Shown here piece after piece: positions 11,956-30,420 of a DNA stretch of 64,000 bases. A model generated the notes under the pieces. It was not told the DNA's origin and ran no database searches. It saw only the letters and a list, made by a program, of their open reading frames with translations. A program made the position numbers and the translations under genes. How positions within the stretch are numbered: position 1 is the stretch's first letter; every line of letters begins with the position of its first letter. The stretch is taken from assembly GCF_053078305.1 (NCBI RefSeq), contig NZ_CP166879.1; one strand, given 5' to 3'.

Positions 11956-12650
11956 TGCAGATCCTCAAAGTGATCGGCCTGTTGATGGAGTATCCGGACG
12001 AGCTGTTGTGGGAATGCAAGGAGGACGCGCTGGCGTTGATCCGCCGCGACGCGCCGATGCTTACGGATTTCACCCACAACCTGCTTAACGCGCCGCTGCT
12101 GGATAAACAGGCCGAATGGTGCGAAGTGTTTGACCGCGGGCGCACCACGTCGCTGCTGCTGTTCGAACATGTTCATGCCGAGTCCCGCGATCGCGGCCAG
12201 GCAATGGTGGACCTGCTGGCGGAGTATGAAAAGGTCGGCCTGCAGCTGGATTGTCGGGAACTGCCCGATTATCTACCGCTGTATCTGGAGTATTTAAGCG
12301 TACTGCCTGACGATCAGGCGAAAGAAGGATTGCTCAATGTTGCGCCGATCCTCGCCCTGCTTGGCGGACGCTTAAAACAACGCGAGGCACCCTGGTCTTC
12401 GTTGTTTGACGCCCTGCTGCAACTGGCAGGAAGCTCCCTTTCAAGTGACAGTGTCACAAAACAGATTCGCAGTGAGGAGCGTGATGAGCCCCCCCAGGCG
12501 CTGGATGCGGTGTGGGAAGAGGAACAGGTGAAGTTTATTGAAGATAACGCCACGGCGTGTGACAGCTCGCCGCTTAATCAATATCAGCGACGCTTTAGCC
12601 AGGATGTCGCGCCGCAATATGTCGACATCAGTGCGGGAGGTGGGAAATGA
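11955..12650 (+). CDS. narW: Nitrate reductase 2 assembly chaperone NarW
   Basis: 231 aa NarJ-family protein; start overlaps the narY stop. Confidence 0.9.
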
Positions 12651-13327
12651 TTCAGTATCTGAACGTCTTTTTTTACGATATCTACCCGTACATTTGTGCG
12701 ACGGTGTTTTTCCTCGGCAGCTGGCTGCGCTACGACTATGGCCAGTACACCTGGCGCGCCTCCTCAAGTCAAATGCTCGATAAACGCGGGATGGTGATAT
12801 GGTCGAATCTGTTCCATATCGGCATTTTGGGGATCTTCTTCGGGCACCTGTTCGGCATGTTAACGCCGCACTGGATGTACGCGTGGTTTTTGCCAGTGGC
12901 AGCGAAACAACTAATGGCGATGGTGCTCGGCGGTATTTGCGGTGTGTTGACGTTGATTGGCGGCGCAGGACTGCTGTGGCGCAGGCTGACAAATCAGCGC
13001 GTGCGTGCCACTTCCACTACGCCGGATATCATCATCATGAGCATTTTGCTGGTCCAGTGTCTGTTGGGGCTAAGCACCATACCGTTTTCAGCACAGTATC
13101 CTGATGGTAGCGAAATGTTGAAGCTGGTGGGTTGGGCGCAAAGCATTGTCACTTTCCGTGGTGGATCGTCAGAGATGCTTAACGGTGTAGCGTTCGTCTT
13201 CCGCCTGCATCTGGTGTTGGGAATGACCATCTTCCTGCTCTTCCCGTTCACTAGACTGGTGCATGTGTGGAGCGCCCCGTTTGAGTACTTTACTCGTCGG
13301 TATCAGATTGTGCGCTCGCGGCGATAA
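12647..13327 (+). CDS. narV: Nitrate reductase 2 gamma subunit NarV (membrane cytochrome b)
   Basis: 226 aa multi-TM protein; start overlaps the narW stop. Confidence 0.9.
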
Positions 13328-13344
13328 TTCTGCTTTTCAAAACC

Positions 13345-13382
13345 GCCTGTTTTTCTTGTCATGTGTTGTCAGAAAAACAGGC
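13345..13382. terminator. Inverted repeat (12-bp arms gcctgtttttct / agaaaaacaggc) between convergent narV and the 403-aa gene; possible bidirectional terminator
   Basis: Perfect 12-bp arms with a 14-nt loop, flanked by T/A runs. Confidence 0.45.
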
Positions 13383-13391
13383 TTTTCAACC

Positions 13392-14603
13392 TTAATGATT
13401 ATCTTCAAACTCTTCCAAAACATATTGAGCATGAAATTGAATACAGGGCCAGGATGAAACTAAACCAGCGCGAGCAGTGGGTACTTCATTGGCGGTGATG
13501 GTGCAAAACCCTCTTCCTGGTGCCATTTCTTTTGCTATGGCTTCAACCAGCTCTGGATGATGACTAAGGACAAACTCTAACGGGGTGTAATCTAAGGGTA
13601 AATGACGTCCGTGGTCCCGAAATGCCAGATATGGAGCTGTTACTCCACGAAGCAAAATTTCTACAGGGAGCTGGGAAATGCGTTCTACCAATAAATTCAT
13701 ATGCCCAAGCCGCGCTATAGCCGCTGCAGCCCAACAGCGGTTACTCCCATCGGCTGTTTGATCGTCCAGCAGGCTTGTCAAAACAGCAATCACATCCTCA
13801 TTAGATTCATTAATTTCTGCAATCAATTTACAGGCATTCCATGCTTTGTCTGCATTTTTAACTTCTTGCAGCAAAGCAGGTAACGCCAGTTGACCTAGTT
13901 GTTTGAGTAATACTTCGTAATCGTCTAAAAGTAGACCCGGCGTTTTTCTGCCAAATATTTGCGCGATTAATTCTGCTATCCGTGCTTGTGAAGGCAAACT
14001 TTTCAGATATTGCCTCTCCTGTTCAGCCTGAGAATATTGAGGAAAATATTGCAATATTTGTTTTTTTGTCAGACTTAACGGGATCAACTCACCAACCTCA
14101 TCAGAGGCTATGGCGATAAAGTTTTTCTCCACTACCCCTTCACGTAAGAGTTGTAGTCGTGCTTTTTTGGCTGCTTTCGGAAAAACACGCAGGAATTGCG
14201 CGTACACCTCATACCAGGCATCAAATGTTCCATTAATAGCAGCGAACTCATGGCATTCATTAGCCCATTGTTCGCATTCTTCGTTAGGTTCATCATTGTA
14301 CTTATGGTCCGCAGGCGACCAGCGTAAGTCCTGTGTGAGTTTTTCTACGTTTTGTGTAAATCCATTTTTCTGATAAGCAGTAACAATAGAGGCCAGGCTT
14401 TCCTCAGTGCCAACTGCCAGACAAGGCCAGTCAATGATGTCCCCATCCCCATAAAAACAATGAAACATGGCACCATAGATATGTTGGCATGGGTGTTCCT
14501 GATGTATATGTTTAACGGAAGCTACCATGTAATTAATGGCAGCCGTTTCCATCCCTTTCCAGTCAAATTGTACTTGCTTCATAAAGCGGTCCGTGTAAGG
14601 CAA
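13392..14603 (-). CDS. Hypothetical protein, 403 aa, cytoplasmic, function unknown; low-GC gene inserted between narV and yddE
   Basis: Long clean ORF with no signal peptide or TM segments; about 45% GC versus roughly 52% for the flanks; I do not recall a gene at this position in K-12. Confidence 0.6.
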   Translation of the reverse strand: MPYTDRFMKQVQFDWKGMETAAINYMVASVKHIHQEHPCQHIYGAMFHCFYGDGDIIDWPCLAVGTEESLASIVTAYQKNGFTQNVEKLTQDLRWSPADHKYNDEPNEECEQWANECHEFAAINGTFDAWYEVYAQFLRVFPKAAKKARLQLLREGVVEKNFIAIASDEVGELIPLSLTKKQILQYFPQYSQAEQERQYLKSLPSQARIAELIAQIFGRKTPGLLLDDYEVLLKQLGQLALPALLQEVKNADKAWNACKLIAEINESNEDVIAVLTSLLDDQTADGSNRCWAAAAIARLGHMNLLVERISQLPVEILLRGVTAPYLAFRDHGRHLPLDYTPLEFVLSHHPELVEAIAKEMAPGRGFCTITANEVPTARAGLVSSWPCIQFHAQYVLEEFEDNH

Positions 14604-14718
14604 TATAGAGAGTTAACCATTTTATCCTGATAGTTATTTCAACATGACTTGCCAAGGATTAATTCAGAAAAGTGCCCTAAACAGGCTATGATAGTTCTCC
14701 AGTCACAGGAGAACGTTA

Positions 14719-15612
14719 ATGAAACCGCAGGTTTACCACGTCGATGCTTTTACCTCTCAACCATTTCGCGGCAATTCTGCCGGTGTTGTTTTCCCCGCCG
14801 ATAATCTTAGCGAAGCGCAAATGCAGCTTATCGCCCGCGAATTAGGTCATTCGGAAACTGCTTTTCTGCTGCACAGCGACGACAGCGATGTGCGCATCCG
14901 CTACTTTACGCCAACGGTTGAAGTTCCGATTTGTGGTCACGCGACAGTAGCTGCGCACTATGTACGTGCGAAGGTGTTAGGTTTAGGAAATTGCACGGTC
15001 TGGCAAACATCGCTGGCAGGAAAACATCGCGTGACTATCGAAAAGCACCACGATGATTATCGTATTTCGCTGGAACAAGGTACGCCGGGCTTTGAGCCAC
15101 CGCTGGAAGATGAAACACGTGCGGCGATTATCAACGCGCTTCATCTCACTGAGGACGATATTCTGCCAGGCTTGCCAATTCAGGTGGCAACAACAGGACA
15201 CTCAAAAGTGATGATCCCGTTGAAACCAGAAGTGGATATCGACGCCCTTTCGCCTGATCTTGCTGCGCTGAGCGCTATCAGCAAACAGATTGGCTGCAAT
15301 GGTTTCTTCCCGTTCCAGATCCGCCCAGGCAAAAACGAAACCGATGGTCGCATGTTCTCGCCTGCGATTGGTATTGTGGAAGATCCGGTGACTGGCAATG
15401 CCAATGGCCCGATGGGTGCATGGTTGGTACATCACAACGTATTGCCCCACGATGGCAAGGTGCTGCGTGTTAAAGGCCATCAGGGGCGCGCATTGGGGCG
15501 TGACGGCGTGATTGAAGTGACGGTGACAATTCGTGATAACCAACCGGAAAAAGTCACCATTTCTGGCGCGGCGGTGATTTTGTTTCATGCCGAATGGGCA
15601 ATTAAACTCTGA
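14719..15612 (+). CDS. yddE: PhzF-family isomerase-like protein YddE
   Basis: 297 aa, begins MKPQVYHVDAFTSQPFRGNSAGVVF (PhzF/DapF fold signature). Confidence 0.9.
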   Translation: MKPQVYHVDAFTSQPFRGNSAGVVFPADNLSEAQMQLIARELGHSETAFLLHSDDSDVRIRYFTPTVEVPICGHATVAAHYVRAKVLGLGNCTVWQTSLAGKHRVTIEKHHDDYRISLEQGTPGFEPPLEDETRAAIINALHLTEDDILPGLPIQVATTGHSKVMIPLKPEVDIDALSPDLAALSAISKQIGCNGFFPFQIRPGKNETDGRMFSPAIGIVEDPVTGNANGPMGAWLVHHNVLPHDGKVLRVKGHQGRALGRDGVIEVTVTIRDNQPEKVTISGAAVILFHAEWAIKL

Positions 15613-17606: not shown

Positions 17607-18594
17607 AATAATGCCAGGGCAAGATTACGAAAGCCTTCTCCCCGCAAGGACTGACGCCAGGTAGTTTCTGTCCATGGCTGCTTTTCGCATCTTACGTCTT
17701 AACCCTGCCTTGAATACCTTATCATTCGTCAAAATATTAATAGCAATGTGCCGTATCCCTGAAAATAATTCTGCTGCATTTCCTCTTCTTATTTTGCAGT
17801 CGTCTTCATTCATTACCACGTCCAGACGCCAGTGCAGCTTATTCTCCACGTGCCAGTGGTTTCGGATTGCTGTGGCGAACTTCTCTGCGGTTAAATCAGC
17901 AGAACTGATATAATATCTGACCGTCATTTCTGGCTCTTTCTTTTGTTCTGCTATTATTGAGCGAAATGAGACTGCCATGCATAATTTCTTCAGCCCTTTC
18001 CATTCAAACGTGAAATCAATAAGTTCATCAGGGATATCGCAGACAATATGGAGACGGATTTTAATGACATGAATCGCTCCCCTGCGGCGACTCTTGTCAT
18101 AAGAGTGCCGGAGCGTTTTTCCATCAATTGCAATGACGTCTTTATCATCTGAAGAATGGCAGTCACGCATCCAGTTAATAAAGCACTCGTGAAATTTTGC
18201 AGGACTGATACAGGATACAACTCTGGCAATGGTATCGTGAACAGGAATACCATTTTCAAAATCACCATATTGCTTCAAAAAATCGAGATGTGTTTCCCCA
18301 AAATCCTCTATATCTTCCCAACCTTCTGCACCAGAAACAACGGCACAAATAATCAACAGTAGAATATCCGATAATTTATGTTCCACTTTCCAGGCTTGTC
18401 TGTAATCGGGGATAATAGAAATATGTTCCATCAATTTTTTAAGTTCCATTTTGTTTCCTTAATTATGTAAGGAGTATTTGATCATGTATAAGCAATAAAA
18501 AACAGCTTTAGGTAATGAGGAACATATCAATTTTTAAACATAAAATGCGAATTATTTAGTACAAAAAGTGTACTTCCGATGATCTTTCCCTGCC
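17607..18594 (-). mobile_element. H-repeat (ISAs1-family) element, copy A, with internally deleted transposase
   Basis: Ends defined by where similarity to copy B (24395–25377) and to the remnant at 30421–30577 starts and stops. Confidence 0.6.
17625..18449 (-). CDS. H-repeat-associated protein / ISAs1-family transposase with an in-frame internal deletion (274 aa instead of about 378 aa)
   Basis: [32 protein letters not shown] ... matches the H-rpt protein (YdcC-like); about 100 central residues are missing between ...AIHVIK and IRLHIVCD... Confidence 0.8.
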
Positions 18595-18862
18595 ATTAAA
18601 TAATGTCTTATTTGACCTTGCCAACATACAACAAAATAATTGAAATATATTCAAAATTAATTTAAACATTCATCAGGCGTCCTTTTCTAAAAAACCTAAT
18701 CATTTAATGGTTAAATTACAATCAAACAAACAAAGTAAACTGGAATTATAGTTGTGGTGCACTTCACGATTTTAGCATTCTTGCTCCTACATTTATACTC
18801 TCTGCCGCGGAAATTTGTTCTCGAAACTTAACTAAACCCAATCAATCATCCTTGCCTTATCG

Positions 18863-19366
18863 TTACTTGAATTTATCAAGACATTTATCATTGCTGACAC
18901 TTTCAATATTTATATGATATACAGTTCCTGTGTTTGAGATATATACTTCCTTAAGCTTATCAGTTTTACTCTCATTATTATAAAAGTAGCCCCCGATAAT
19001 TTTATTCTTCTTTGATATATAAGTGACAGTGTCAGTATGAACTCCACCATTTATTGTCATAATGAATGAGGCATCCAAGTTCATCGTACTTTCCCCCTTA
19101 AAATATATTTTACCATTAGAAATCACTTTGGTCTCAGAAACACCGTTAGGCTCGTCATTACTAATTAATATAAGTAAATCTACCATTTCGGATTTTTTAT
19201 CTCTTTCTTTATAACCACCAATATCATCCAGGATATTATTTGACACTTTTCCACAAAGCATCACTGAGTAATTATTCAAATTTTTGAGTTGAGAGCACTT
19301 TGCCACAAAAGAGAATGAAATAAATATCAAACCTACCGAAATGATTATTGTTTTTTTAAAATTCAT
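18863..19366 (-). CDS. Putative immunity protein for the upstream effector; secreted/periplasmic (signal peptide)
   Basis: 167 aa, hydrophobic N-terminal signal sequence, AT-rich; starts 4 nt after the effector stop. Confidence 0.55.
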   Translation of the reverse strand: MNFKKTIIISVGLIFISFSFVAKCSQLKNLNNYSVMLCGKVSNNILDDIGGYKERDKKSEMVDLLILISNDEPNGVSETKVISNGKIYFKGESTMNLDASFIMTINGGVHTDTVTYISKKNKIIGGYFYNNESKTDKLKEVYISNTGTVYHINIESVSNDKCLDKFK

Positions 19367-19370
19367 TGTT

Positions 19371-21449
19371 TTAAAGAATCCTTATGTAATTAAGTGGAGG
19401 TGTTATTTCATCATTCAATACATACCAAGAATGCTCAAATGCTGGCCAACGCACTAAATCGAAGCCATCTGCTGCTGGGTTTATTCGCCGTGTAACTTCT
19501 CTGGCATCTGACAAACTACATCCTTTATCCGCCCAATAATTAACGCCTAAACTACCACTAGGTGTCAATCGATGGCTTACCATTATGTATTTTTGCTTAC
19601 TTGCCCAAAAGTATCCCCCGGCATCGCAAGAAAAATAGGCATTTTCAACTGGGAGTTGGTTATTGGGTTCTGTAGTAAAAAAATCATCATCTGACGGATT
19701 TCTATACTTTCCATAATTTCTATAATTCTCACGACCAGTTAGATGTATGGTACCTCTGCCTTTAAATCTTGCACCATCACCAACAACATTATTTCCAAGC
19801 TTAAGTCCCTGTTCTGTTCCTGGCTCATACATATCAAAATAACTCGAATCACCATTCTCTATAAAAGACGCAAATCTGCCTGTTTCTCTCGCCATCTGAC
19901 CGAAATAATGCGCAATCCGCAATGGGGTTGTAATTAAGTACTTCCTTAGTGACTTTGACAGTTCATTTTTCAACCCTGCAGGTCTTATCACCTCACCACT
20001 GCTATTTTGTCCTTGGCTAGTAATCCGCTCAATTAGAGTGTCTTTACTTAATGGTCTTGTAAGTTCTGATGTCATGGGATAAGCATTTTGATAACGTCTT
20101 ACCACACTTATAATATCATTTTCTCCTAACCACCCACATTTCCTGAAATGTGCAATAAACTGCCTGGGATCAAAATGCCATACACGCCTGGCAGGTAACG
20201 GATTATCTACCAAACAAAGCGCCTTACAGTGTTCTATCAGCAAATCCAGGTCAGGCTCTGTCATCGGCTTACTCAATACGTCATTGGGTGATTTCAGCCA
20301 CTCAAACCGTGATTCCACGGTGGCGCTGTCCCATTCTAGCGGAAAATGACAAATCATCCGACTTAGGTCATTGCGGGTTGTACACAGGATTGTTGGTGAA
20401 TTGCACTGGCTGTTGGTGTCCGCATCATCGTTCACCAGTTTCCACCCTGTCCAGTGTGGAAAATCACCGTCGCTGTAAACCCTGATATCTCTCGCCCCTA
20501 AGTTAACAACGCCTTTACCCTGTGGCGTATTGATTGTTCGCCACAGCGGCGCATCCGCCGGGACTAATTCTTCATATTCTGTATTAACAACCCGACCAAA
20601 ACGCAGCATCTCATAACCGGCACTTGGGCTTTTCGGATAGAGTTGCAGCGCGTAGGAATAGAGATTGTATTCATAATCCTTACCATCAGCATTAATCAAG
20701 GGAGAACCTACTTCAGTATAGGTATCACTCAGCACTTCATGCTGCTGACGCGTCACCATCGTACAATTGCCTTTATCAAAACTCATTGTGACATACAATG
20801 GCACGCTGGTTCTTTGTACCGGACTGTTGTTCGCAAGCGAGTTTTCTTCCGGCATGTCCCCATAAATCGGTGTTCCGGCAGGGAGATAAAAATGACTATC
20901 ACCGTAAACCACATCAGTTCGTCCATCTTTATTCAGGTCTGTTTCCGGTGATATTCTTCCTGTGATTTTCTGAATGTTTTCATCATCACAAAAAATCTGA
21001 AAATGAAAGGCGTTCTGTCCGTCCACCATCCCTGCTGCACCAACCGGTTCTTTCCGGTATAGCGTGTTTCCCGGCTGCACATTACTGTCAATGCTTCTCA
21101 GGTGCATATATAATGAGTAATAGACGATTTTACCCTCTTCTCCACTACCGATTTCTGTTTCATGTTTTATCAGAACATAGCCTTTATCCGTAACTCCGTT
21201 ATAATTTAACGGAGGAACTGTATTTTCCGCTGGTTCTGGCTGGCGTATTGAAATAACCTTCCCATCGGCAATACACCTAACAGTCTCTGACAGATTGCCG
21301 TTCAAATGAACTCCACCATGCCAAGAACGACCGCTATTCATTGGGAAATTTCTTTCTGGATCAACAGACATCATTCTGTTTACCCAGTCAGAGTCTTTTT
21401 CAGTGTCTATATGCGCATGCAATATTGGAGGGCTGATTATCATTATCAA
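19371..21449 (-). CDS. Putative T6SS cargo effector, 692 aa: N-terminal LytM/M23-like domain and C-terminal GH19/lysozyme-like domain (peptidoglycan hydrolase candidate)
   Basis: N-terminal motifs WHGGVHL ... GYVLIKHE ... YYSLYMHL resemble degenerate M23 motifs; C-terminal FKGRGTIHLTGRENYRNYGKY and GGYFWAS resemble GH19 signatures; immediately downstream of vgrG. Confidence 0.6.
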   Translation of the reverse strand: MIMIISPPILHAHIDTEKDSDWVNRMMSVDPERNFPMNSGRSWHGGVHLNGNLSETVRCIADGKVISIRQPEPAENTVPPLNYNGVTDKGYVLIKHETEIGSGEEGKIVYYSLYMHLRSIDSNVQPGNTLYRKEPVGAAGMVDGQNAFHFQIFCDDENIQKITGRISPETDLNKDGRTDVVYGDSHFYLPAGTPIYGDMPEENSLANNSPVQRTSVPLYVTMSFDKGNCTMVTRQQHEVLSDTYTEVGSPLINADGKDYEYNLYSYALQLYPKSPSAGYEMLRFGRVVNTEYEELVPADAPLWRTINTPQGKGVVNLGARDIRVYSDGDFPHWTGWKLVNDDADTNSQCNSPTILCTTRNDLSRMICHFPLEWDSATVESRFEWLKSPNDVLSKPMTEPDLDLLIEHCKALCLVDNPLPARRVWHFDPRQFIAHFRKCGWLGENDIISVVRRYQNAYPMTSELTRPLSKDTLIERITSQGQNSSGEVIRPAGLKNELSKSLRKYLITTPLRIAHYFGQMARETGRFASFIENGDSSYFDMYEPGTEQGLKLGNNVVGDGARFKGRGTIHLTGRENYRNYGKYRNPSDDDFFTTEPNNQLPVENAYFSCDAGGYFWASKQKYIMVSHRLTPSGSLGVNYWADKGCSLSDAREVTRRINPAADGFDLVRWPAFEHSWYVLNDEITPPLNYIRIL

Positions 21450-21590
21450 TAGTCCTTATTAAGCTTATAAAACATGTAACGAGTATGAATTATTCATTCA
21501 CAGAGCATCTCTGCTTAGAAAGCAGAAAATCACAGTATTATTGTATTATTACTACCGTCATCCGTTATCTTTATCTGAATGATTATCCCA

Positions 21591-23737
21591 CTACGAGAAC
21601 ATGAACTTCACTCTGGTCTCATCATTACCGATATCATCATCAGTATTACTATCCGTATCATTAGTGACTAAAGTGTTCAGGACAGTGGGTTGCAGTGTCG
21701 GTACCGGTGTCCCCGGACTCCCCCCACCATTAAGATTTATCTTCGGCCCCACTATATCCACGCCGCCCGGCTGAATAACGATAAACGAGCCACCCACCTT
21801 CAGGCTTATCCGGCTGCTGCTCTCCAGCACGATATCCCCGTCCACCTTTATCCCCAGCGCGCCACTCACCTTCCTCGCCAGGTCCCCCTTCACCACCAGG
21901 CTGTGTTTCCCCTCCACCAGACTGATATGGTTCCCCGTCGTCTTATGCTCCTGCTTCCCTTCCACCGTCACTTTACGGTCGTTTCTGACGTACAGACCGT
22001 CATCGTGACTCACGCTCACCGTCCGGTCATTCGTCACCTTCAGAGTCTGGTCATTACGTACTGTGATACGCCGGTCGTTCGCCACCGTGATACTCTGGTC
22101 GTGGCCCCCTCTTTTTTTGTACCGACCTGAACCGTCTGGCCCTTCACCACCGTTATCTTCTGGTCGTTACCAATGGTTTCCGTGTGGTCATGCTTCACGT
22201 CCGTCGTCCGGTCGTTGAGCACTTCCGTATCCATGTTCTTCTGCGCATGGATATACACCTGCTCATTACTGGTGGCGTCTTCAAACCGCAGCTCGTTAAA
22301 TCCGCTTCCTTTATAGGTTTTTGACCGGATGGTCATCTGCGTCTTCGTTCCCGGCAGGTCGCCCGGCGAACGGTTGTCCTCATGGTACGTCCGCCCCATG
22401 ATTATCGGCTGGTCCGGGTCGCCGTTCAGGAAGTCCACTATCACCTCCTGACCCACCCGCGGTATCGCCAGATTACCGAACCCCGGCCCCGCCCACGCCT
22501 GCGATACACGCACCCAGCATGAACTCGCCTCCGTCATCCCGTGATAACGGTCCCAGTGGAACTTCACCCGTACCCGGCCATGTTCATCGCAGAAGATTTC
22601 CTCTCCCGCAGGCCCGGTGACAATGGTGCTCTGTGGCCCGTCCACCTTCGGTTTGCTTTGCAGCCGTGGACGCCACGTCCGGTCTGCCGGTATCACCTCT
22701 AACTGATTTCCCAGTGTGGTTCCTCTCCCCTGGCTGCCGTGCAACGCCTGCGGCTGGCTTCCTGACAGTATGCTCTGTACCACCTGCCATTCACGGTTCA
22801 GCATCTTCTGCGGATGCCCCGTCAGCGTAAACCGCGTTCCCGGCCACAGCTTCGGTGAATTACTCTGCCCTGTGGCCTTTTCCGCATCACTGCGCAGGCT
22901 GTCCATCTGATACAGCGTGAAATCCTTGCCGTGCTGCTCATCCTTGAACCTTCCCGGATAATCAAATATCTCGTACTGCGCGTGCTGTCCGTTCAGCCTC
23001 TCACCCTGCTGTTCGTATATCCCCGGCCAGTCCGGCACCTTAAACGTGTAATCCTGACTCTGCACCGACGACGGGCGGACATGCGCCTCATAACGGAACA
23101 TACTGAGACACTCCGTCTCCGCTCCTGCCGATGTGTCCGGGTTAAACGGAAGCTCTCCCGCCTGTGACAGCCCCGCCACATCGTCGCACAGCGTCAGCTT
23201 CTGCTCCGGGCTGTCCGCCGCAAACCGCTCAAAGAAGAAAATCCCCTCCTCCGCCCACAGCCGGGACAGAAACGCCAGGTCGCTCTCTCCGTACTGGACA
23301 CAGAACTCCCGCGCCGGATGGTCCTCATAAAACAGCGGCGTCCACTCCGTGACGCCGTTCTCGTTCAGTAACGTGGCCGATATCGTCCGGATATCCTGCT
23401 GCTGAAAAATACGAAAGTTCTGCCGCAGCCCGCACCGCCATAACGGCGGCTCAATACGCAGGTGATAACGCATCTGCCAGCCGTTGTTCTCCTGCATGCC
23501 AAAGCCCGCCACCACGCCAGTGACATAACGCAGCGGAATGACGCCCTGCCAGATGGTCAGCGTTGCGTTCTTCTCCAGCAGCATCTCCGCCGTCTGCATA
23601 AAAGAGTCGCTGGCAACATCCACACTCATCACAAACGGATAAGACTGGTTCTGGATTAACCTGAAATTCACCACTGCAAAGGTGTCCGGCTCCTGGCCGT
23701 CAACCTCCAGCGTAAAGCGAAGACCTTTTAAGGACAT
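21591..23737 (-). pseudogene. vgrG: vgrG (T6SS spike protein), copy A, disrupted by a 1-nt deletion in a homopolymer (C5 on + strand at 22105–22109); ORFs 22040..23737 and 21591..22085 are one gene
   Basis: Conserved VgrG motifs LRFTLEVDG, GLRQNFRIFQ, GPQS.IVTGPAGEEIFCDEHGRVRVKFHWDRY, NLAIPRVGQEVIVDFLNGDPDQPIIMGRTYH; reading through the G-run restores ...KKEGGHDQSITVANDRRITV... as in copy B. Confidence 0.8.
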
Positions 23738-24180
23738 AAATACCTCTCTGGTATATCAGCCTATATTTACCGTGCCGCCACCAATAACCACGCCGCCGCA
23801 GTCAATGGCATCACCGGTTCTGGCGGCGGGCAGGCCGTCAATAAAGACGGTTGAAGAGCCTCTGGCGATTTTTCGGGGATGAGGTGGATGCTTCGGTTTA
23901 GCATGCGGCGTCGGCGGATCTCCCTGACGGGCTGCGGGGAGACCATCGATAAAAACGGTGGATGACCCGGCGGTGATGACGGTCTCGTAATAACCGTCGT
24001 GCTGAGTGCCTTTGTCGGTGAGTTTGGCTGCTAAAGGCATAATTCCTCCTGTTCAGAATTTCTACAGCAGCAGGTTTCAAAAATCCGGAGAAATATTCAA
24101 CGAAACATTAATCACTTCACCGGATATTCTGACACGTACCTTCACTAGTCTATTTAAGTAATACAAATTGTTGGCGTGTA
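22128..24180 (-). repeat. Duplicated PAAR–vgrG 5' segment, copy A (paralogous to 28368–30420, high but not perfect identity)
   Basis: Near-identical nucleotide stretches including the leader upstream of PAAR (taattcctcctgtt(c/a)agaatttctacagcagcaggtttcaaaaatccggag...). Confidence 0.85.
23756..24040 (-). CDS. PAAR-repeat protein (T6SS spike tip), 94 aa
   Basis: Two GLPAAR(Q/T)GD motifs; directly upstream of vgrG. Confidence 0.8.
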   Translation of the reverse strand: MPLAAKLTDKGTQHDGYYETVITAGSSTVFIDGLPAARQGDPPTPHAKPKHPPHPRKIARGSSTVFIDGLPAARTGDAIDCGGVVIGGGTVNIG

Positions 24181-24394
24181 ATACCCCATTCTCCTTTCAT
24201 TATCTTTGCCTTTAAAACAGAAAGTTCTTGAAATATATATTTAAGGAAAAAACCACGATAAACACCACAAGGATAATATAAATCACCAAGTTATCGAAAA
24301 TTTAAAAAATCACGCGTCAGATCTGATAAAAAATAGGCTATCACATGTAACTCCTGGGCGATCTCGCAAAAATTAAATTATAAAAATACATGAC

Positions 24395-25377
24395 GCAGGG
24401 CAAGATTACGAAAACCCGCTCCCCGCAAGGACTGACGTCAGGTAGTTTCTGTCCATGGCTGCTTTTCGCATCTTACGTCTTAACCCTGCCCTGGATACCT
24501 TATCATTCATCAAAATATTAATAGCAATGTGCCGTATCCCTGAAAATAATTCTGCTGCGTTTCCTCTTCTTATTTTGCAGTCGTCTTCATTCATTACCAC
24601 GCCCAGACGCCAGTGCAGCTTATTCTCCACGTACCAGTGGTTTCGGATTGCTGTGGCGAACTTCTCTGCGGTTAAATCAGCAGAACTGATATAATATCTG
24701 ACCGTCATTTTGGGATTTTTCTTTTGTTCTGCTATTATTGAGCGAAATGAGACTGCCATGCATAATTTCTTCAGCCCTTTCCATTCAAACGTGAAATCAA
24801 TAAGTTCATCAGGGATATCGCAGACAATATGGAGACGGATTTTAATGACATGAATCACTCCCCTGCGGCGACTCTTGTCATAAGAGTGCCGGAGCGTTTT
24901 TCCATCAATTGCAATGACGTCTTTATCATCTGAAGAATGGCAGTCACGCATCCAGTTAATAAAGCACTCGTGAAATTTTGCAGGACTGATACAGGATACA
25001 ACACTGGCAATGATATCGTGAACAGGAATACCATTTTCAAAATCACCATATCACTTCAAAACATCGGGATGTGTTTCCCCAAAATCCTCTATATCTCCCA
25101 GTCTTATGCACCAGAAATAACGGCGCAAATAGTTAACAGATAGAATATCTGGCAATTTATGTTCCACTTTCCAGGCTTGCCTGTAATCGGGGATAACAGA
25201 AATATGTTCCATCAATTTTTTAAGTTCCATTTTGTTCTCCTTAATTATGTAAGGGGTATTTGATCATGTGTAAGCAATAAAAAACAGCTTCAGGCAATAA
25301 GGAATATCTCAATTTTCAAACATAAAATGTGAATTATTTAGTACAAAAAGTGTACTTCTGATGATCTTTCCCTGCCC
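24395..25377 (-). mobile_element. H-repeat (ISAs1-family) element, copy B, degraded
   Basis: Homologous to copy A over its whole length, with the same internal deletion plus extra substitutions and indels. Confidence 0.6.
24406..25231 (-). pseudogene. H-repeat/ISAs1-family transposase pseudogene (frameshifted N-terminal region; same internal deletion as copy A)
   Basis: ORF 24406..24951 encodes the C-terminal part ([20 protein letters not shown]...); the N-terminal [11 protein letters not shown]... lies in other frames near 25231. Confidence 0.7.
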
Positions 25378-25453
25378 TTGTTTATTAGGTATATACCATA
25401 AATACTGAGTATTTTATTGTGCTATTTGTTTATTAAAAATTTGCGAGCAATAA

Positions 25454-25933
25454 TTAAAGATTGCCATCTTCATTGCCGACGAAATAAATATCAAATGAAC
25501 ACTCCAATCCAAGATTAGCCATTATTTTCATCTGCTCAGGCCATAAAGTTGGCCCACCGTGCCAATTCAATGATCTCCAGGTACAGTCAATACCCATTGA
25601 AATATTTTCTAATGCTTGCAATTTTGCAATATTTGATGATTTAGGTCCAAGTTTGTGAAGTAGCCAATCCAGATGTTCTCGAATATCTTTCGAGTTCACT
25701 AGATTTTCTGACGAGAGCATCCAATATGAATTTTTTGCATATCTTTTCTTTCCCGATAGAGTAATAATTTCATCTCCTTTTATATTAATTGATGTTGGCT
25801 CAAGTTCTAAGTGAATACTTATTTCATTAGGGTGAGTATTACCTGTGTAAATCAAGAGGCTAGCATAGCACTCATCACAACTTGGATATTCATGAGATAT
25901 CGGGGTAAGCCTTGATTGTATATTCTTAATCAT
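25454..25933 (-). CDS. Putative immunity protein for effector B; cytoplasmic, 159 aa
   Basis: No signal peptide; start overlaps the effector stop (translational coupling); AT-rich. Confidence 0.5.
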   Translation of the reverse strand: MIKNIQSRLTPISHEYPSCDECYASLLIYTGNTHPNEISIHLELEPTSINIKGDEIITLSGKKRYAKNSYWMLSSENLVNSKDIREHLDWLLHKLGPKSSNIAKLQALENISMGIDCTWRSLNWHGGPTLWPEQMKIMANLGLECSFDIYFVGNEDGNL

Positions 25934-27063
25934 AAATAATCCTCTATGTTTCCTAAAATATTTCCTGAGTCATCAATATAATCACCATTATCAAGTATTC
26001 GACCATGGTGATCACCTCGTAAGCGTAAATCTTTTTTCAACTTTTCTAAAGCTTTCCCCCATTCTCTCCTGTTAATATTTTTACCAAAAAATTCATTTAA
26101 CTCCCTGGCAGTTCTTGCCTCAAGAGTATTACCTCCAGTTTGTAATACTCTCGGAACTCTTCCCGCAGCGCCAACGCTTGGAGGAACAGGAATAGGCAAT
26201 CCATTTGCATCCAGCACAATTTTAGCACCGCTCCTCCCCATTCTGCCAACCGATTTTATTGCAAACTTCGCTGAAAACTTGACCAAACCTTTCACCAGTG
26301 CTCCAACCCCGGTCATAAGTTCCAGCCATGGCTCAACCTCCATCGCCATTGCTTGGGTTTCATTGGCAGGTTTCAACAATGGCTCTCTAGGATCAATAGT
26401 TTCCATTACCTCCCTGTTGGTCTCATTCGCCCGCTCCATAATTTGGGTATCCATCCCCAACCCTCTCGCCAGAGCAATATTACTTTCCATTTGGGCAATG
26501 TCATTTTGCATCTGACCTTTGGCAATCAATGCACCCAACATATACCAGCCATTAATAAATGCCTTGCCTAATCCTATCATTGCATCTGCTTCTTGCTTTT
26601 TGGACTCAAGCTCAAACTCTTGCTGTTGTCTTTGCAGTTCCAGATACCTGGCCCAAAGCGATGATTCTTTAACAGGTATTATCTGATTTGGCAGGTTTGT
26701 CTGGGTATACAGTTTTCCAACAGTATTATCATTATTCATGGCAACCAGCGAAAGATTCCTGGCTACCGGCTTTCCCTTGCACTTTATATGATCCACGCCT
26801 GTCAGTATCCGGCAGTCACCGCTGCCCAGACTGGTGCCAGAACTGACACCTTTCCCGGCATTACTTCGTGTACCTGCAATAATACAGTCCACGGTCAGTA
26901 CTGGATTGCCCCGTGCCCTGACATTGCTGATATAAATTTTCTCATGTGTCAGGTCCTGAAAGCTGTCAAACGGCACTATCGCATCACCAACCTTGCAGAC
27001 ATCAGGCGCAATACATATCGCAACGTACTTCGATTCACGACAACCAATATGATTTTCAGCCAT
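25930..27063 (-). CDS. Putative T6SS effector, 377 aa: N-terminal PAAR-like (DUF4150-type) domain fused to a C-terminal toxin domain of unassigned family
   Basis: N-terminus ...YVAICIAPDVCKVGDAIVPF... resembles the PAAR-like DUF4150 signature; downstream of vgrG and an adaptor-like gene, followed by an overlapping small ORF. Confidence 0.55.
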   Translation of the reverse strand: MAENHIGCRESKYVAICIAPDVCKVGDAIVPFDSFQDLTHEKIYISNVRARGNPVLTVDCIIAGTRSNAGKGVSSGTSLGSGDCRILTGVDHIKCKGKPVARNLSLVAMNNDNTVGKLYTQTNLPNQIIPVKESSLWARYLELQRQQQEFELESKKQEADAMIGLGKAFINGWYMLGALIAKGQMQNDIAQMESNIALARGLGMDTQIMERANETNREVMETIDPREPLLKPANETQAMAMEVEPWLELMTGVGALVKGLVKFSAKFAIKSVGRMGRSGAKIVLDANGLPIPVPPSVGAAGRVPRVLQTGGNTLEARTARELNEFFGKNINRREWGKALEKLKKDLRLRGDHHGRILDNGDYIDDSGNILGNIEDYL

Positions 27064-27997
27064 GAGGTCCCCTCTGCTCCGTCGTCAAAACAATACGTTG
27101 TGGAAGAGAATCCACGGGGAGCGTTAAGCGCCAGAGTAGTGTTAGTTGCTCATCGTCTGTGTGGATGGTCAGTGTGTCAGCCAACAATGGGCGCAGTTCT
27201 ACGTTTTTATCAGAGCGGTAAAACAAATACGCCAATAGTCTAATATCTGGAAGGAAACAAATTTGTTCCATTTTAGAAGGTAATAGGCCGTTCAATATAA
27301 TTTTTTCATTGCCAATTAAATAACCATCGTATTGTTGTTCTGGTGGAGAATAATTCATGAATGCAAAATCGAATTCATCTGGATAAAAAGGTTGAACAGT
27401 CTTTTGCCACTGTTCTGTAAAACCTCTGGCATAGCGCAATCGTGAAGGCCAGCTACGGCAAATAGCTCCTGGTGAGGCAGATAACTGTGGAGCTGGACAG
27501 GGCGATTTATCGCCAAGCGTTATCAGGGAGGGAATAACAATGCCTACAGGATTAAATTCACTGGCTGACGCCAGTTCATGGCGTAACAGTACCCGATCAG
27601 TTAATTCAGGTTCGCTAAGTTGCCAGCGGTTAGATATATATTGCCATTGGCAAGGGCCACATATATCAAATTGGCGCTGAAGATTACCAACCTGTAAACT
27701 GGCCTGCCATCGAGTGGTTTCCCCGGTGGCATGCCATGCGTGTCCATTTAATAAAACATCTGCCCTGACTTTTCTGCAAACCAAATCGGTTGCTGTTTTA
27801 AGACTGCTGCTTTCCGGTTCGCCGTACCAGGAGTCGGTCATCAGTGGCAGTCGCTGCTCATCCGCAATCAGACAGAGACCGCCGCTATATGAAAAATCAA
27901 ATGTCTGATTAACTACCACTACTGTGAATAACTCACCATAATATCCCACTTTTTCGAACTGAAAGTGAGGTAAACCAGTTTCATTTTCAATATTCAT
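27056..27997 (-). CDS. Putative T6SS effector adaptor/chaperone (DUF2169- or DUF4123-like by position), 313 aa
   Basis: Lies between vgrG and the PAAR-like effector; overlaps the effector start by 8 nt; no recognisable catalytic motif. Confidence 0.4.
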   Translation of the reverse strand: MNIENETGLPHFQFEKVGYYGELFTVVVVNQTFDFSYSGGLCLIADEQRLPLMTDSWYGEPESSSLKTATDLVCRKVRADVLLNGHAWHATGETTRWQASLQVGNLQRQFDICGPCQWQYISNRWQLSEPELTDRVLLRHELASASEFNPVGIVIPSLITLGDKSPCPAPQLSASPGAICRSWPSRLRYARGFTEQWQKTVQPFYPDEFDFAFMNYSPPEQQYDGYLIGNEKIILNGLLPSKMEQICFLPDIRLLAYLFYRSDKNVELRPLLADTLTIHTDDEQLTLLWRLTLPVDSLPQRIVLTTEQRGPHG

Positions 27998-28012
27998 GTT
28001 AATTTCTCCAGA

Positions 28013-29977
28013 TTAATCCAGATCAATATCTGCGCCGAAAATATTGATTTTATCTTTTCCTTCAATCTGGATACTTTTACCATTGAGAATGATAGTACCG
28101 TCCTTATTCATTTTCAGTAAGCATTCACCGACTTTAATGGTGAGGCTGTTGGTAACTGTCAGGCTGTAATCTTCTCCAACTTTAATATCCTGGGATTTCA
28201 CGACTTCTTCGGTATCTTTTCCTATTATCTTACTGATTTGATCGTTCCCTACATCCTTGTGACGATCGTGGGTAACATCCAGCCGCTGATCGTTTTGTAC
28301 CGTAATGGTCTGGTCATTCGCCACTGTCACTTTCTGGTCATGACCACCTTCCTTTTTGCTCCCCACATTCACCGTCTGGCCCTTCACCACCGTTATCTTC
28401 TGGTCGTTACCAATGGTTTCCGTGTGGTCATGCTTCACGTCCGTCGTCCGGTCATTCAGCACTTCCGTATCCATGTTCTTCTGCGCGTGAATATAGACCT
28501 GTTCCTTATCTGTGGCGTCCTCAAAGCGCAGCTCGTTAAATCCGCTTCCTTTATAGGTCTTCGACCGGATGGTCATTTGTGTCTTCGTTCCCGGCAGGTC
28601 GCCCGGCGAACGGTTGTCTTCATGGTATGTGCGTCCCGTCACAATGGGCTGGTCCGGGTCGCCGTTCAGAAAGTCCACTATCACCTCCTGACCCACACGC
28701 GGTATCGCCAGATTACCGAACCCCGGCCCCGCCCACGCCTGCGATACACGCACCCAGCATGAACTCGCCTCCGTCATCCCGTGATAACGGTCCCAGTGGA
28801 ACTTCACCCGTACCCGGCCATGTTCATCGCAGAAGATTTCCTCTCCCGCAGGCCCGGTGACAATGGCGCTCTGTGGCCCGTCCACCTTCGGTTTGCTTTG
28901 CAGCCGTGGACGCCACGTCCGGTCTGCCGGTATCACCTCTAACTGATTTCCCAGCGTGGTTCCTCTCCCCTGGCTGCCGTGCAGCGCCTGCGGCTGGCTT
29001 CCTGACAGTATGCTCTGTACCACCTGCCATTCACGGTTCAGCATCTTCTGCGGATGCCCCGTCAGCGTAAACCGCGTTCCCGGCCACAGCTTCGGTGAAT
29101 TACTCTGCCCTGTGGCCTTTTCCGCATCACTGCGCAGGCTCTCCATCTGGTACAGCGTGAAATCCTTGCCGTGCTGCTCGTCCTTGAACCTTCCCGGATA
29201 ATCAAATATCTCGTACTGCTCCAGCTGTCCGTTCAGGTTCTCACCCTGCTGCTCATACATCCCCGGCCAGTCCGGCACCTTAAACGTGTAATCCTGGCTC
29301 TGCACCGACGACGGGCGGACATGCGCCTCATAACGGAACATACTGACACACTCCGTCTCCGCTCCTGCCGATGTATCCGGGTTAAACGGAAGCTCCCCCG
29401 CCTGTGACAGCCCCGCCACATCGTCGCACAGCGTCAGCTTCTGCTCCGGGCTGTCCGCCGCAAACCGCTCAAAGAAGAAAATTCCCTCCTCCGCCCACAG
29501 CCGCGCCAGAAACGCCAGGTCCGACTCCCCGTACTGCACACAGAACTCCCGCGCCGGATGGTCCTCATAATACAGCGGCGTCCACTCCGTGACGCCGTTC
29601 TCGTTCAGTAACGTGGCCGATATCGTCCGGATATCCTGCTGCTGGAAGATACGGAAGTTCTGCCGCAGCCCGCACCGCCATAACGGCGGCTCAATACGCA
29701 GGTGATAACGCATCTGCCAGCCGTTATTCTCCTGCATGCCAAAGCCCGCCACCACGCCGGTGACATAACGCAGCGGGATGACGCCCTGCCAGATGGTCAG
29801 CGTCGCCTTCTTCTCCAGCAGCATCTCCGCCGTCTGCATAAAAGAGTCGCTGGCAACATCCACACTCATCACAAACGGATATGACTGGTTCTGGATTAAC
29901 CTGAAATTCACCACTGCAAAGGTGTCCGGCTCCTGGCCGTCAACCTCCAGCGTAAAGCGCAGACCTTTTAAGGACAT
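28013..29977 (-). CDS. vgrG: VgrG (T6SS spike protein), copy B, intact, 654 aa, with a C-terminal tail distinct from copy A
   Basis: Same conserved VgrG motifs as copy A; C-terminus ...KVGEDYSLTVTNSLTIKVGECLLKMNKDGTIILNGKSIQIEGKDKINIFGADIDLD differs from copy A. Confidence 0.88.
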   Translation of the reverse strand: MSLKGLRFTLEVDGQEPDTFAVVNFRLIQNQSYPFVMSVDVASDSFMQTAEMLLEKKATLTIWQGVIPLRYVTGVVAGFGMQENNGWQMRYHLRIEPPLWRCGLRQNFRIFQQQDIRTISATLLNENGVTEWTPLYYEDHPAREFCVQYGESDLAFLARLWAEEGIFFFERFAADSPEQKLTLCDDVAGLSQAGELPFNPDTSAGAETECVSMFRYEAHVRPSSVQSQDYTFKVPDWPGMYEQQGENLNGQLEQYEIFDYPGRFKDEQHGKDFTLYQMESLRSDAEKATGQSNSPKLWPGTRFTLTGHPQKMLNREWQVVQSILSGSQPQALHGSQGRGTTLGNQLEVIPADRTWRPRLQSKPKVDGPQSAIVTGPAGEEIFCDEHGRVRVKFHWDRYHGMTEASSCWVRVSQAWAGPGFGNLAIPRVGQEVIVDFLNGDPDQPIVTGRTYHEDNRSPGDLPGTKTQMTIRSKTYKGSGFNELRFEDATDKEQVYIHAQKNMDTEVLNDRTTDVKHDHTETIGNDQKITVVKGQTVNVGSKKEGGHDQKVTVANDQTITVQNDQRLDVTHDRHKDVGNDQISKIIGKDTEEVVKSQDIKVGEDYSLTVTNSLTIKVGECLLKMNKDGTIILNGKSIQIEGKDKINIFGADIDLD

Positions 29978-30420
29978 AAATACCTCTCAGACATATCAGC
30001 CTATATTTACCGTACCGCCACCAATGACCACACCACCACAGTCGATGGCATCACCGGTTCTGGCGGCGGGCAGGCCGTCAATAAAGACGGTTGACGAGCC
30101 TCTGGCGATTTTACGGGGATGAGGGGGATGCTTCGGTTTAGCATGCGGCGTCAGCGGATCTCCCTGGCGGGCTGCGGGGAGACCATCGATAAAAACGGTG
30201 GATGACCCGGCGGTGATGACGGTCTCGTAATAACCGTCGTGCTGGGTGCCTTTGTCGGTGAGTTTGGCTGCTAAAGGCATAATTCCTCCTGTTAAGAATT
30301 TCTACAGCAGCAGGTTTCAAAAATCCGGAGAAATATTCAACGAAATATTAATCACTTCACCGGATATTCTGATACGTACCTTCACTGGTCTATTTAAGTA
30401 ATACAAATTGTTGGCGTGTA
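28368..30420 (-). repeat. Duplicated PAAR–vgrG 5' segment, copy B
   Basis: Paralogous to 22128–24180. Confidence 0.85.
29996..30280 (-). CDS. PAAR-repeat protein, copy B, 94 aa
   Basis: Near-identical to 23756..24040; two PAAR motifs. Confidence 0.8.
   Translation of the reverse strand: MPLAAKLTDKGTQHDGYYETVITAGSSTVFIDGLPAARQGDPLTPHAKPKHPPHPRKIARGSSTVFIDGLPAARTGDAIDCGGVVIGGGTVNIG

Follow-up and report, generated by a model that had tools for sequence, protein, structure and literature searches.

This study reports a gene for a DUF4303 domain-containing protein between narV and yddE in a stretch of DNA of 64,000 nucleotides (the window), which, on the most parsimonious reading of the sequence comparisons, is an old resident of the narZYWV–nhoA neighbourhood of the Enterobacteriaceae that has been lost by most E. 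coli, and not a gene inserted there. The protein joins a DUF4303 domain to a HEAT-like α-solenoid, and its most likely role, inferred from this architecture, would be that of a non-enzymatic protein binder. The complete explanation, namely an ancestral gene, its loss from most E. coli and a non-catalytic binder as its product, is put forward here at about even confidence. The result is a modest one: a locus taken for a defence islet is reread as gene loss at an old locus, and a rare, conserved two-domain DUF4303–HEAT family, already annotated but uncharacterised, is documented.

Gene model and the narV–yddE junction

The features of the locus are as follows, in window coordinates.

12647..13327, plus strand: narV, the narI-type gamma subunit of nitrate reductase Z; convergent left neighbour, and synteny anchor in Escherichia, Kluyvera and Klebsiella
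13329..14682, no strand: segment of 1,354 bp, exchanged for a 40-bp hairpin spacer of unrelated sequence (TCACCCTGGCCGGATAGCCCTTCGCTCTCCGGCCACTTGC) in K-12, O157 and almost all other E. coli
13345..13382, no strand: likely terminator hairpin, with 12-bp perfect arms at 13345-13356 and 13371-13382 and U-rich tracts on both strands
13392..14582, minus strand: coding sequence of the DUF4303 gene, 396 aa plus stop, WP_028132738.1 ('DUF4303 domain-containing protein'), almost certainly starting at ATG 14582
14583..14718, no strand: intergenic region of 136 bp between the divergent DUF4303 gene and yddE, the presumed location of the promoter of the DUF4303 gene
14719..15612, plus strand: yddE, a PhzF-family isomerase; divergent right neighbour in Escherichia

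The minus-strand open reading frame at 13392-14603 comprises 403 residues when read from TTG 14603, and a preliminary description of the window had accordingly presented it as a clean 403-aa frame. The frame is real, but its start and length need correction: the true start is almost certainly ATG 14582, giving 396 residues, and TTG 14603 is discarded, because the PGAP calls, the alignment of homologues and the divergence between TTG and ATG agree. ATG 14582 is the start called by PGAP in four genomes, i.e. in each E. coli carrier, 43 of 43 homologues align from its methionine (MKQ..FDW), and four of the 21 nucleotides between TTG and ATG differ between the two E. coli alleles, compared with 5.4% over the whole gene. 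Neither E. albertii nor any of the four E. coli carriers has a disrupted frame. A weak GGA lies about 10 nt upstream of ATG 14582; the minus strand of 14583..14718 shows no consensus sigma-70 site, the sole sigma-70 site of this region being on the plus strand (14663-14692) and pointing to yddE.

The 12-bp inverted repeat that had been thought to bracket the gene does exist, but it is a single local hairpin on one side only, and it is the only strong inverted repeat at the locus. The hairpin (dG −19.1 kcal/mol, z = −5.1) stands between convergent genes and has U-rich tracts on both strands, which points to a likely bidirectional terminator serving narV and the DUF4303 gene and not to a bracket. 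Its position is shared by E. albertii and the second E. coli allele, where the arms contain some mismatches, and a search of both strands of 12500-15500 against Rfam gave no match. The GC content over 13392-14603 is 43.7%, with a GC3 of 36.5%, compared with 54.4% in the nar genes and 51.6% in yddE–nhoA; an earlier estimate of about 45%, below the flanks, was thus right in direction and slightly high in value.

The adjacency of narV and yddE in K-12, as given in the preliminary description, is confirmed, the two genes being 78 bp apart in both K-12 and O157. The survey of this junction that the preliminary description had proposed was run on 5,426 complete E. coli genomes, of which 5,392 matched the flanking sequence, and four carry the gene, all at that junction. 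The carriers ET350 and D8 have a gene 100% identical to that of the window, while 2017-02-2CC and LR-28 have a second allele with 94.4% nucleotide identity; in a large protein collection, one exact variant in the 90%-identity cluster of the gene (P0045) is found on 477 contigs. The gene is therefore not part of the E. coli core genome, K-12 and O157 both presenting the empty site, and the earlier view of a low-GC single-gene presence/absence polymorphism at narV–yddE holds; the gene is missing from K-12 and over 99.9% of the complete E. coli genomes. The flanks of the window are 97-100% identical to O157 up to both junctions, no direct repeat or target duplication was found at the ends of 13329..14682, and a remnant of the gene was sought in the 40-bp spacer, where similarity was no better than chance. 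The spacer itself (O157, L002 3075-3114; identical in K-12) carries GGCCGGA...TCCGGCC, a REP-like hairpin.

Between 2017-02-2CC and LR-28 the DUF4303 gene is 99.7% identical, at a dS of about 0.2 in narY/W/V, yddE and nhoA (L003 and L005, 6001-7191). A mosaic around the gene is thus visible in these two genomes, and the gene appears from the sequence to have spread partly by homologous recombination. Two very divergent classes of narV alleles are also present in E. coli (L037 1894-2574 and L036 779-1459): narV of 1162invT2 shares 83% nucleotide identity with that of K-12 (dS 0.71, dN 0.086), a gap similar to the distance between K-12 and E. albertii, whereas narW and yddE next to it are much more alike.

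Between about 6.5 and 18.5 kb the window and ET350 are collinear, but they part in the T6SS island downstream; the window thus derives from a relative of ET350 and not from that strain. By collinearity with ET350 at sampled points, the region of about 2880-4870, just upstream of narU, contains espR1 (a T3SS effector with leucine-rich repeats) and a truncated LRR gene. The position that rhsE occupies in K-12 corresponds to 17625-30280 on the minus strand of the window, where two tandem orphan T6SS spike modules are found with ISAs1 fragments between them; in ET350 an S-type pyocin module takes this position instead.

Spike module 1, minus strand: PAAR 23756-24040; frameshifted Vgr 21591-23737; M23 metallopeptidase effector 19371-21449; 167-aa open reading frame 18863-19366
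Spike module 2, minus strand: PAAR 29996-30280; VgrG 28013-29977; DUF2169 27056-27997; PAAR-like effector 25930-27063; DUF4279 25454-25933

Age of the gene beside narV

In E. albertii the same gene (84% amino-acid identity) occupies the same narV–yddE junction with identical boundaries, and all 41 variants bearing a name in the E. albertii 90%-identity cluster are labelled E. albertii. The copy from Kluyvera georgiana (58%) is convergent to an adjoining narV, and that from K. aerogenes (52%) lies within the narV–nhoA interval; neighbour joining unites the nine Enterobacterales sequences in one clade in 60 of 60 bootstraps. The synonymous divergence of the gene follows that of its surroundings, with a dS between the E. 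coli alleles of 0.16 compared with 0.2-0.28 in the flanks, and a dS to E. albertii of 0.40-0.45 compared with 0.40-1.06. At the protein level the gene has about twice the divergence of its flanks, whether measured to E. albertii or at the depth of Klebsiella, and this constant excess at two depths fits a constant relative rate under vertical descent. Low GC3 is common to the syntenic copies of E. albertii, K. aerogenes and Kluyvera, and is thus a long-standing property of the gene and not the mark of a recent import.

The gene would have stood beside narV already in the common ancestor of E. coli and E. albertii, and its presence there is most probably older than the divergence of Escherichia, Kluyvera and Klebsiella. 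E. albertii retains it, while in nearly all E. coli one event would have swapped 1.35 kb for the 40-bp hairpin spacer, the carrier haplotype being kept at low frequency in a few E. coli lineages. The polarity of this change rests on outgroup synteny because the spacer keeps no remnant of the gene, a point that counts against ancestral presence.

The alternative is a horizontally acquired single-gene islet, i.e. a foreign, low-GC gene recently dropped between narV and yddE. Such an event would suit the small number of carriers, the GC content of the gene against the 52-54% of its flanks, the flanks of the window being typical E. coli sequence up to the junctions, and the scatter of homologues over Proteobacteria and Actinobacteria with signs of inter-phylum transfer. 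However, it does not readily account for a gene found at the same site with the same boundaries in E. albertii and in the narV neighbourhood in Kluyvera and K. aerogenes, with a dS that tracks the flanks, monophyletic enteric copies and a low GC3 equally present in all of the syntenic genera. Furthermore, target-site duplications, terminal inverted repeats, integrase or transposase genes and a tRNA target were looked for at the locus and not found, tblastn against plasmids and phages returned no copy, and the nearest IS fragment (ISAs1) is 3 kb from the gene. The outgroup synteny, flank-like dS, monophyly and missing hallmarks of mobility all speak against the earlier wording that the gene was inserted between narV and yddE, and a recent islet is considered improbable. 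The gene may have been re-imported from another Escherichia lineage by homologous recombination, which would be the transfer of an allele and not an insertion.

Two-domain architecture and the protein family

The segments of the protein map to the minus strand of the window as follows.

14028..14582, minus strand: N-terminal α/β domain, aa 1-185, with the motifs FHxFYGD, RWSPAD and DEAGEL
14109-14528, minus strand: Pfam DUF4303 match, aa 19-158
13395..14027, minus strand: two-helix linker and HEAT/ARM-like α-solenoid, aa 186-396, with the repeat motif RxWAAxALARLG

The BLASTP and HMM searches proposed in the preliminary description identify an annotated DUF4303 protein with a HEAT-like C-terminal half. 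The N-terminal domain belongs to Pfam DUF4303 (PF14136) with an E value of 2.4e-8 and a weak score of 34 bits over model positions 5-133 of 155, and the same family is matched by 42 of the 44 full-length homologues (E <= 0.001; best 2e-12). HEAT_2 is matched in 24 of the 44 (E <= 0.1), and the C-terminal half has the tandem helix repeats, α-solenoid and repeat motif of a HEAT-repeat protein. The AlphaFold2 model built from the 44-sequence alignment is confident (pLDDT 94.7, pTM 0.76); its α/β domain (aa 1-185) is followed by two linker helices and then by paired helices that form a solenoid. As judged from the profile matches plus the predicted structure, the architecture is that of a DUF4303 domain followed by a HEAT-like solenoid. 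No solved structural relative of the DUF4303 domain was found, nor does its fold resemble SUKH or other solved immunity folds.

The protein is soluble, acidic (pI 5.2) and predicted to be cytoplasmic. In agreement with the earlier statement that it has neither a signal peptide nor transmembrane segments, the maximum Kyte–Doolittle value is 1.05 (19 residues) and the N-terminus is not signal-like. It was also correctly described as having no nameable catalytic motif: no catalytic motif or enzyme family was detected, no convincing catalytic constellation was recognized among the conserved residues, and a search against NCBIfam gave a noise match only. The dN/dS of the gene is about 0.19 (0.17-0.20), with values of 0.10-0.26 in the two domains, which indicates purifying selection on each of them. 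From Streptomyces to E. coli, FHxFYGD, RWSPAD and DEAGEL in the N-terminal domain and RxWAAxALARL, FRD and LDY in the solenoid are invariant, and more distant relatives keep mostly aromatic and structural positions.

Full-length homologues with 37-59% identity are distributed patchily over several groups, comprising Enterobacterales (Kluyvera, K. aerogenes, Cronobacter condimenti, Rouxiella and a Klebsiella sp.), other Proteobacteria (Pseudomonas, Variovorax and Azonexus) and Actinobacteria (Leucobacter, Microbacterium, Agromyces, Rhodococcus, Prescottella, Streptomyces and Propionicimonas). When 1.84 billion representatives were searched exhaustively with an HMM, 243 proteins were retrieved (E <= 0.001), most of which are two-domain proteins of 380-500 aa, while a few are stand-alone N-terminal domains; as far as these sequences tell, the family is rare, and patchy and loss-prone in its distribution across phyla. 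One candidate, P0234 (933 aa, nine matched stretches), was rejected as a repetitive false positive. A word-index search for typical short DUF4303 proteins with a profile of the distant N-terminal domains retrieved three proteins only.

A stand-alone N-terminal domain of 181 aa, with no HEAT half, is encoded between ilvH and ilvC in one bacterium (L044 280-825, L045 98-643), and the two domains are therefore separable; another stand-alone relative lies on a 2-kb contig whose context is uninformative. The tree does not unite the actinobacterial sequences: those of Leucobacter and Propionicimonas cluster with proteobacterial copies, apart from those of Rhodococcus, Streptomyces and Microbacterium. 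This topology suggests inter-phylum transfer within the family.

In about 20 loci, drawn from more than 12 genera, the gene stands alone among housekeeping genes, with contexts such as narV, lpd/DUF2950, accD/cinA, ilvH/ilvC and varied metabolic genes of Actinobacteria, and no neighbouring family common to several genera was found. No nar genes were found near the homologues of Pseudomonas, Actinobacteria or the other enteric loci. Outside Escherichia, no toxin, VgrG, PAAR or Rhs gene was found within about 8 kb in these roughly 20 loci; in the Escherichia loci only, an rhsE-type island is present, and it is more than 3 kb away (3-4 kb), beyond yddE, nhoA, yddH and pptA. Nowhere does the gene lie directly downstream of a toxin gene or in a poly-immunity array, the arrangement by which an immunity protein would be recognized. 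In K. aerogenes only, a 99-aa open reading frame with 41% GC is found between narV and the DUF4303 gene (L010 9356-9655), and it has no Pfam or PHROGs match.

Candidate functions and comparison with known systems

The protein would most likely act by binding another protein rather than by catalysis. The leading guess for its partner is an incoming toxin acting in the cytoplasm, for example a DNase delivered by an Rhs or T6SS system, which the protein would sequester as a stand-alone inhibitor of the immunity type; this assignment, drawn by analogy, is tentative and falls clearly short of an even chance. Imm-HEAT is a recognized class of immunity proteins (PMC3482391), yibA neutralizes the C-terminal region of RhsA (PMC3150448), and the active site of the DNase Tde5 is occluded by the HEAT-like Tdi5a (PMC13392607). 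For the other domain, a Stenotrophomonas preprint presents a DUF4303 protein as the predicted cognate immunity protein of an Rhs-CT nuclease (bioRxiv 10.64898/2026.07.13.738213). The only published functional hints for both domain types point to toxin immunity, and the acidic pI of 5.2 and the patchy, loss-prone distribution count for a binder or immunity reading.

The genomic context, however, argues in the opposite direction. The gene has no adjoining toxin in any of the loci examined, and the T6SS/Rhs markers revealed by inspection of the neighbourhoods are confined to those of Escherichia, so that the co-occurrence with toxin genes envisaged in the preliminary description is not observed in other genera. 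It also shows long vertical inheritance, purifying selection and polar and aromatic motifs that are invariant across phyla, whereas the interfaces of an arms race usually lack such cross-phylum invariance. The link between DUF4303 and immunity comes from the structure-prediction screen of one preprint (bioRxiv 10.64898/2026.07.13.738213). The suggestion of an orphan immunity gene therefore has literature precedent for its domain types but no toxin beside it in any genus.

An endogenous scaffold or regulator, in which the DUF4303 domain and the HEAT solenoid bind a cellular partner in a dispensable physiological pathway unrelated to inter-bacterial conflict, is about as likely as the immunity-type inhibitor, and is likewise possible rather than probable. 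The constant housekeeping context without toxin neighbours, the long vertical inheritance under purifying selection and the strong conservation of the motifs from Streptomyces to E. coli all suit this role, and a parallel exists in the homologues of Tdi5b, a protein whose family is not stated: most of these homologues lie away from toxin loci, and other roles in the cell are proposed for them (PMC13392607, section 8). On the other hand, no conserved neighbour or operon partner hints at a pathway, more than 99.9% of E. coli do without the gene, a family of 243 among 1.84 billion proteins is very rare, and the published hints for both domain types indicate immunity instead.

Small shares of probability remain for a role linked to NarZ, for phage defence and for an unrecognized enzyme. 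An accessory factor for the assembly or stability of nitrate reductase Z (NarZYWV) is suggested by the position of the gene, which is next to narV in Escherichia and in Kluyvera georgiana, and within the narV–nhoA interval in K. aerogenes, but the gene is convergent to narV with the terminator hairpin between them, NarZ is kept in thousands of E. coli without the gene, and the absence of nar genes near the homologues of Pseudomonas, Actinobacteria and other enteric loci largely refutes such a factor. The adjacency to narV is explained by shared descent, and the accessory role is very unlikely. A single-gene anti-phage system would be in keeping with a rare, low-GC, stand-alone accessory gene, as had been proposed earlier; however, the protein has no effector-type enzymatic domain, matches no family of PADLOC-DB at E <= 1 and none of PHROGs, and has no homologue among the phages and plasmids searched, while the gene lies outside defence islands and is old and syntenic, all of which leaves a defence function barely credible.

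Within the immunity reading, a more specific proposal is that of a fused two-module immunity factor, in which the DUF4303 and HEAT-like domains would each hold a different surface of a delivered effector of the DNase type, much as Tdi5a and Tdi5b do in P. aeruginosa, where they are products of separate genes. Such a factor would be unlinked to any toxin and vertically inherited across enterobacterial genera, and would provide standing chromosomal protection; this proposal, drawn by analogy, is unlikely. Separately, the DUF4303 domain would have a fold with no solved relative. If the protein does prove to be a toxin-unlinked immunity factor, the gene would exemplify standing immunity that is long-lived and passed on vertically, and immunity would be the first tested function for DUF4303. 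A structure of the N-terminal DUF4303 domain would be informative, since it has no solved relative.

Compared with known systems, the protein differs from plain DUF4303 proteins in that most members of its subfamily add a C-terminal HEAT-like solenoid to reach 380-500 aa, although stand-alone versions of about 180 aa exist within the same subfamily. In the literature searched, no experimentally characterized DUF4303 protein was found, the family being named only in the Stenotrophomonas preprint (bioRxiv 10.64898/2026.07.13.738213). For the C-terminal half, the PBS-lyase-type HEAT proteins (CpcE/F) and the designed alphaRep proteins match best in both structure and sequence; this likeness is generic to the repeat, and the bilin-lyase context is absent here. 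The predicted model also has a HEAT-like match to the solved structure of YibA from the rhsA locus (1oyz), but YibA and Tdi5a are absent from the matches of a sequence search of the PDB, and neither has a specific sequence relationship to this protein, which differs from Imm-HEAT, YibA and Tdi5a in its additional DUF4303 domain.

The gene also resembles the orphan immunity genes and immunity islets of T6SS, Rhs and CDI systems in being stand-alone, accessory and patchily distributed and in encoding a cytoplasmic protein with domain types known from immunity proteins, and an rhsE-type vgrG/Rhs island lies 3-4 kb away in Escherichia. Orphan immunity genes normally form arrays beside toxin loci and turn over rapidly. 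The DUF4303 gene differs: four unrelated, conserved genes stand between it and the island, it is syntenic in genera without the island, and it evolves under steady purifying selection.
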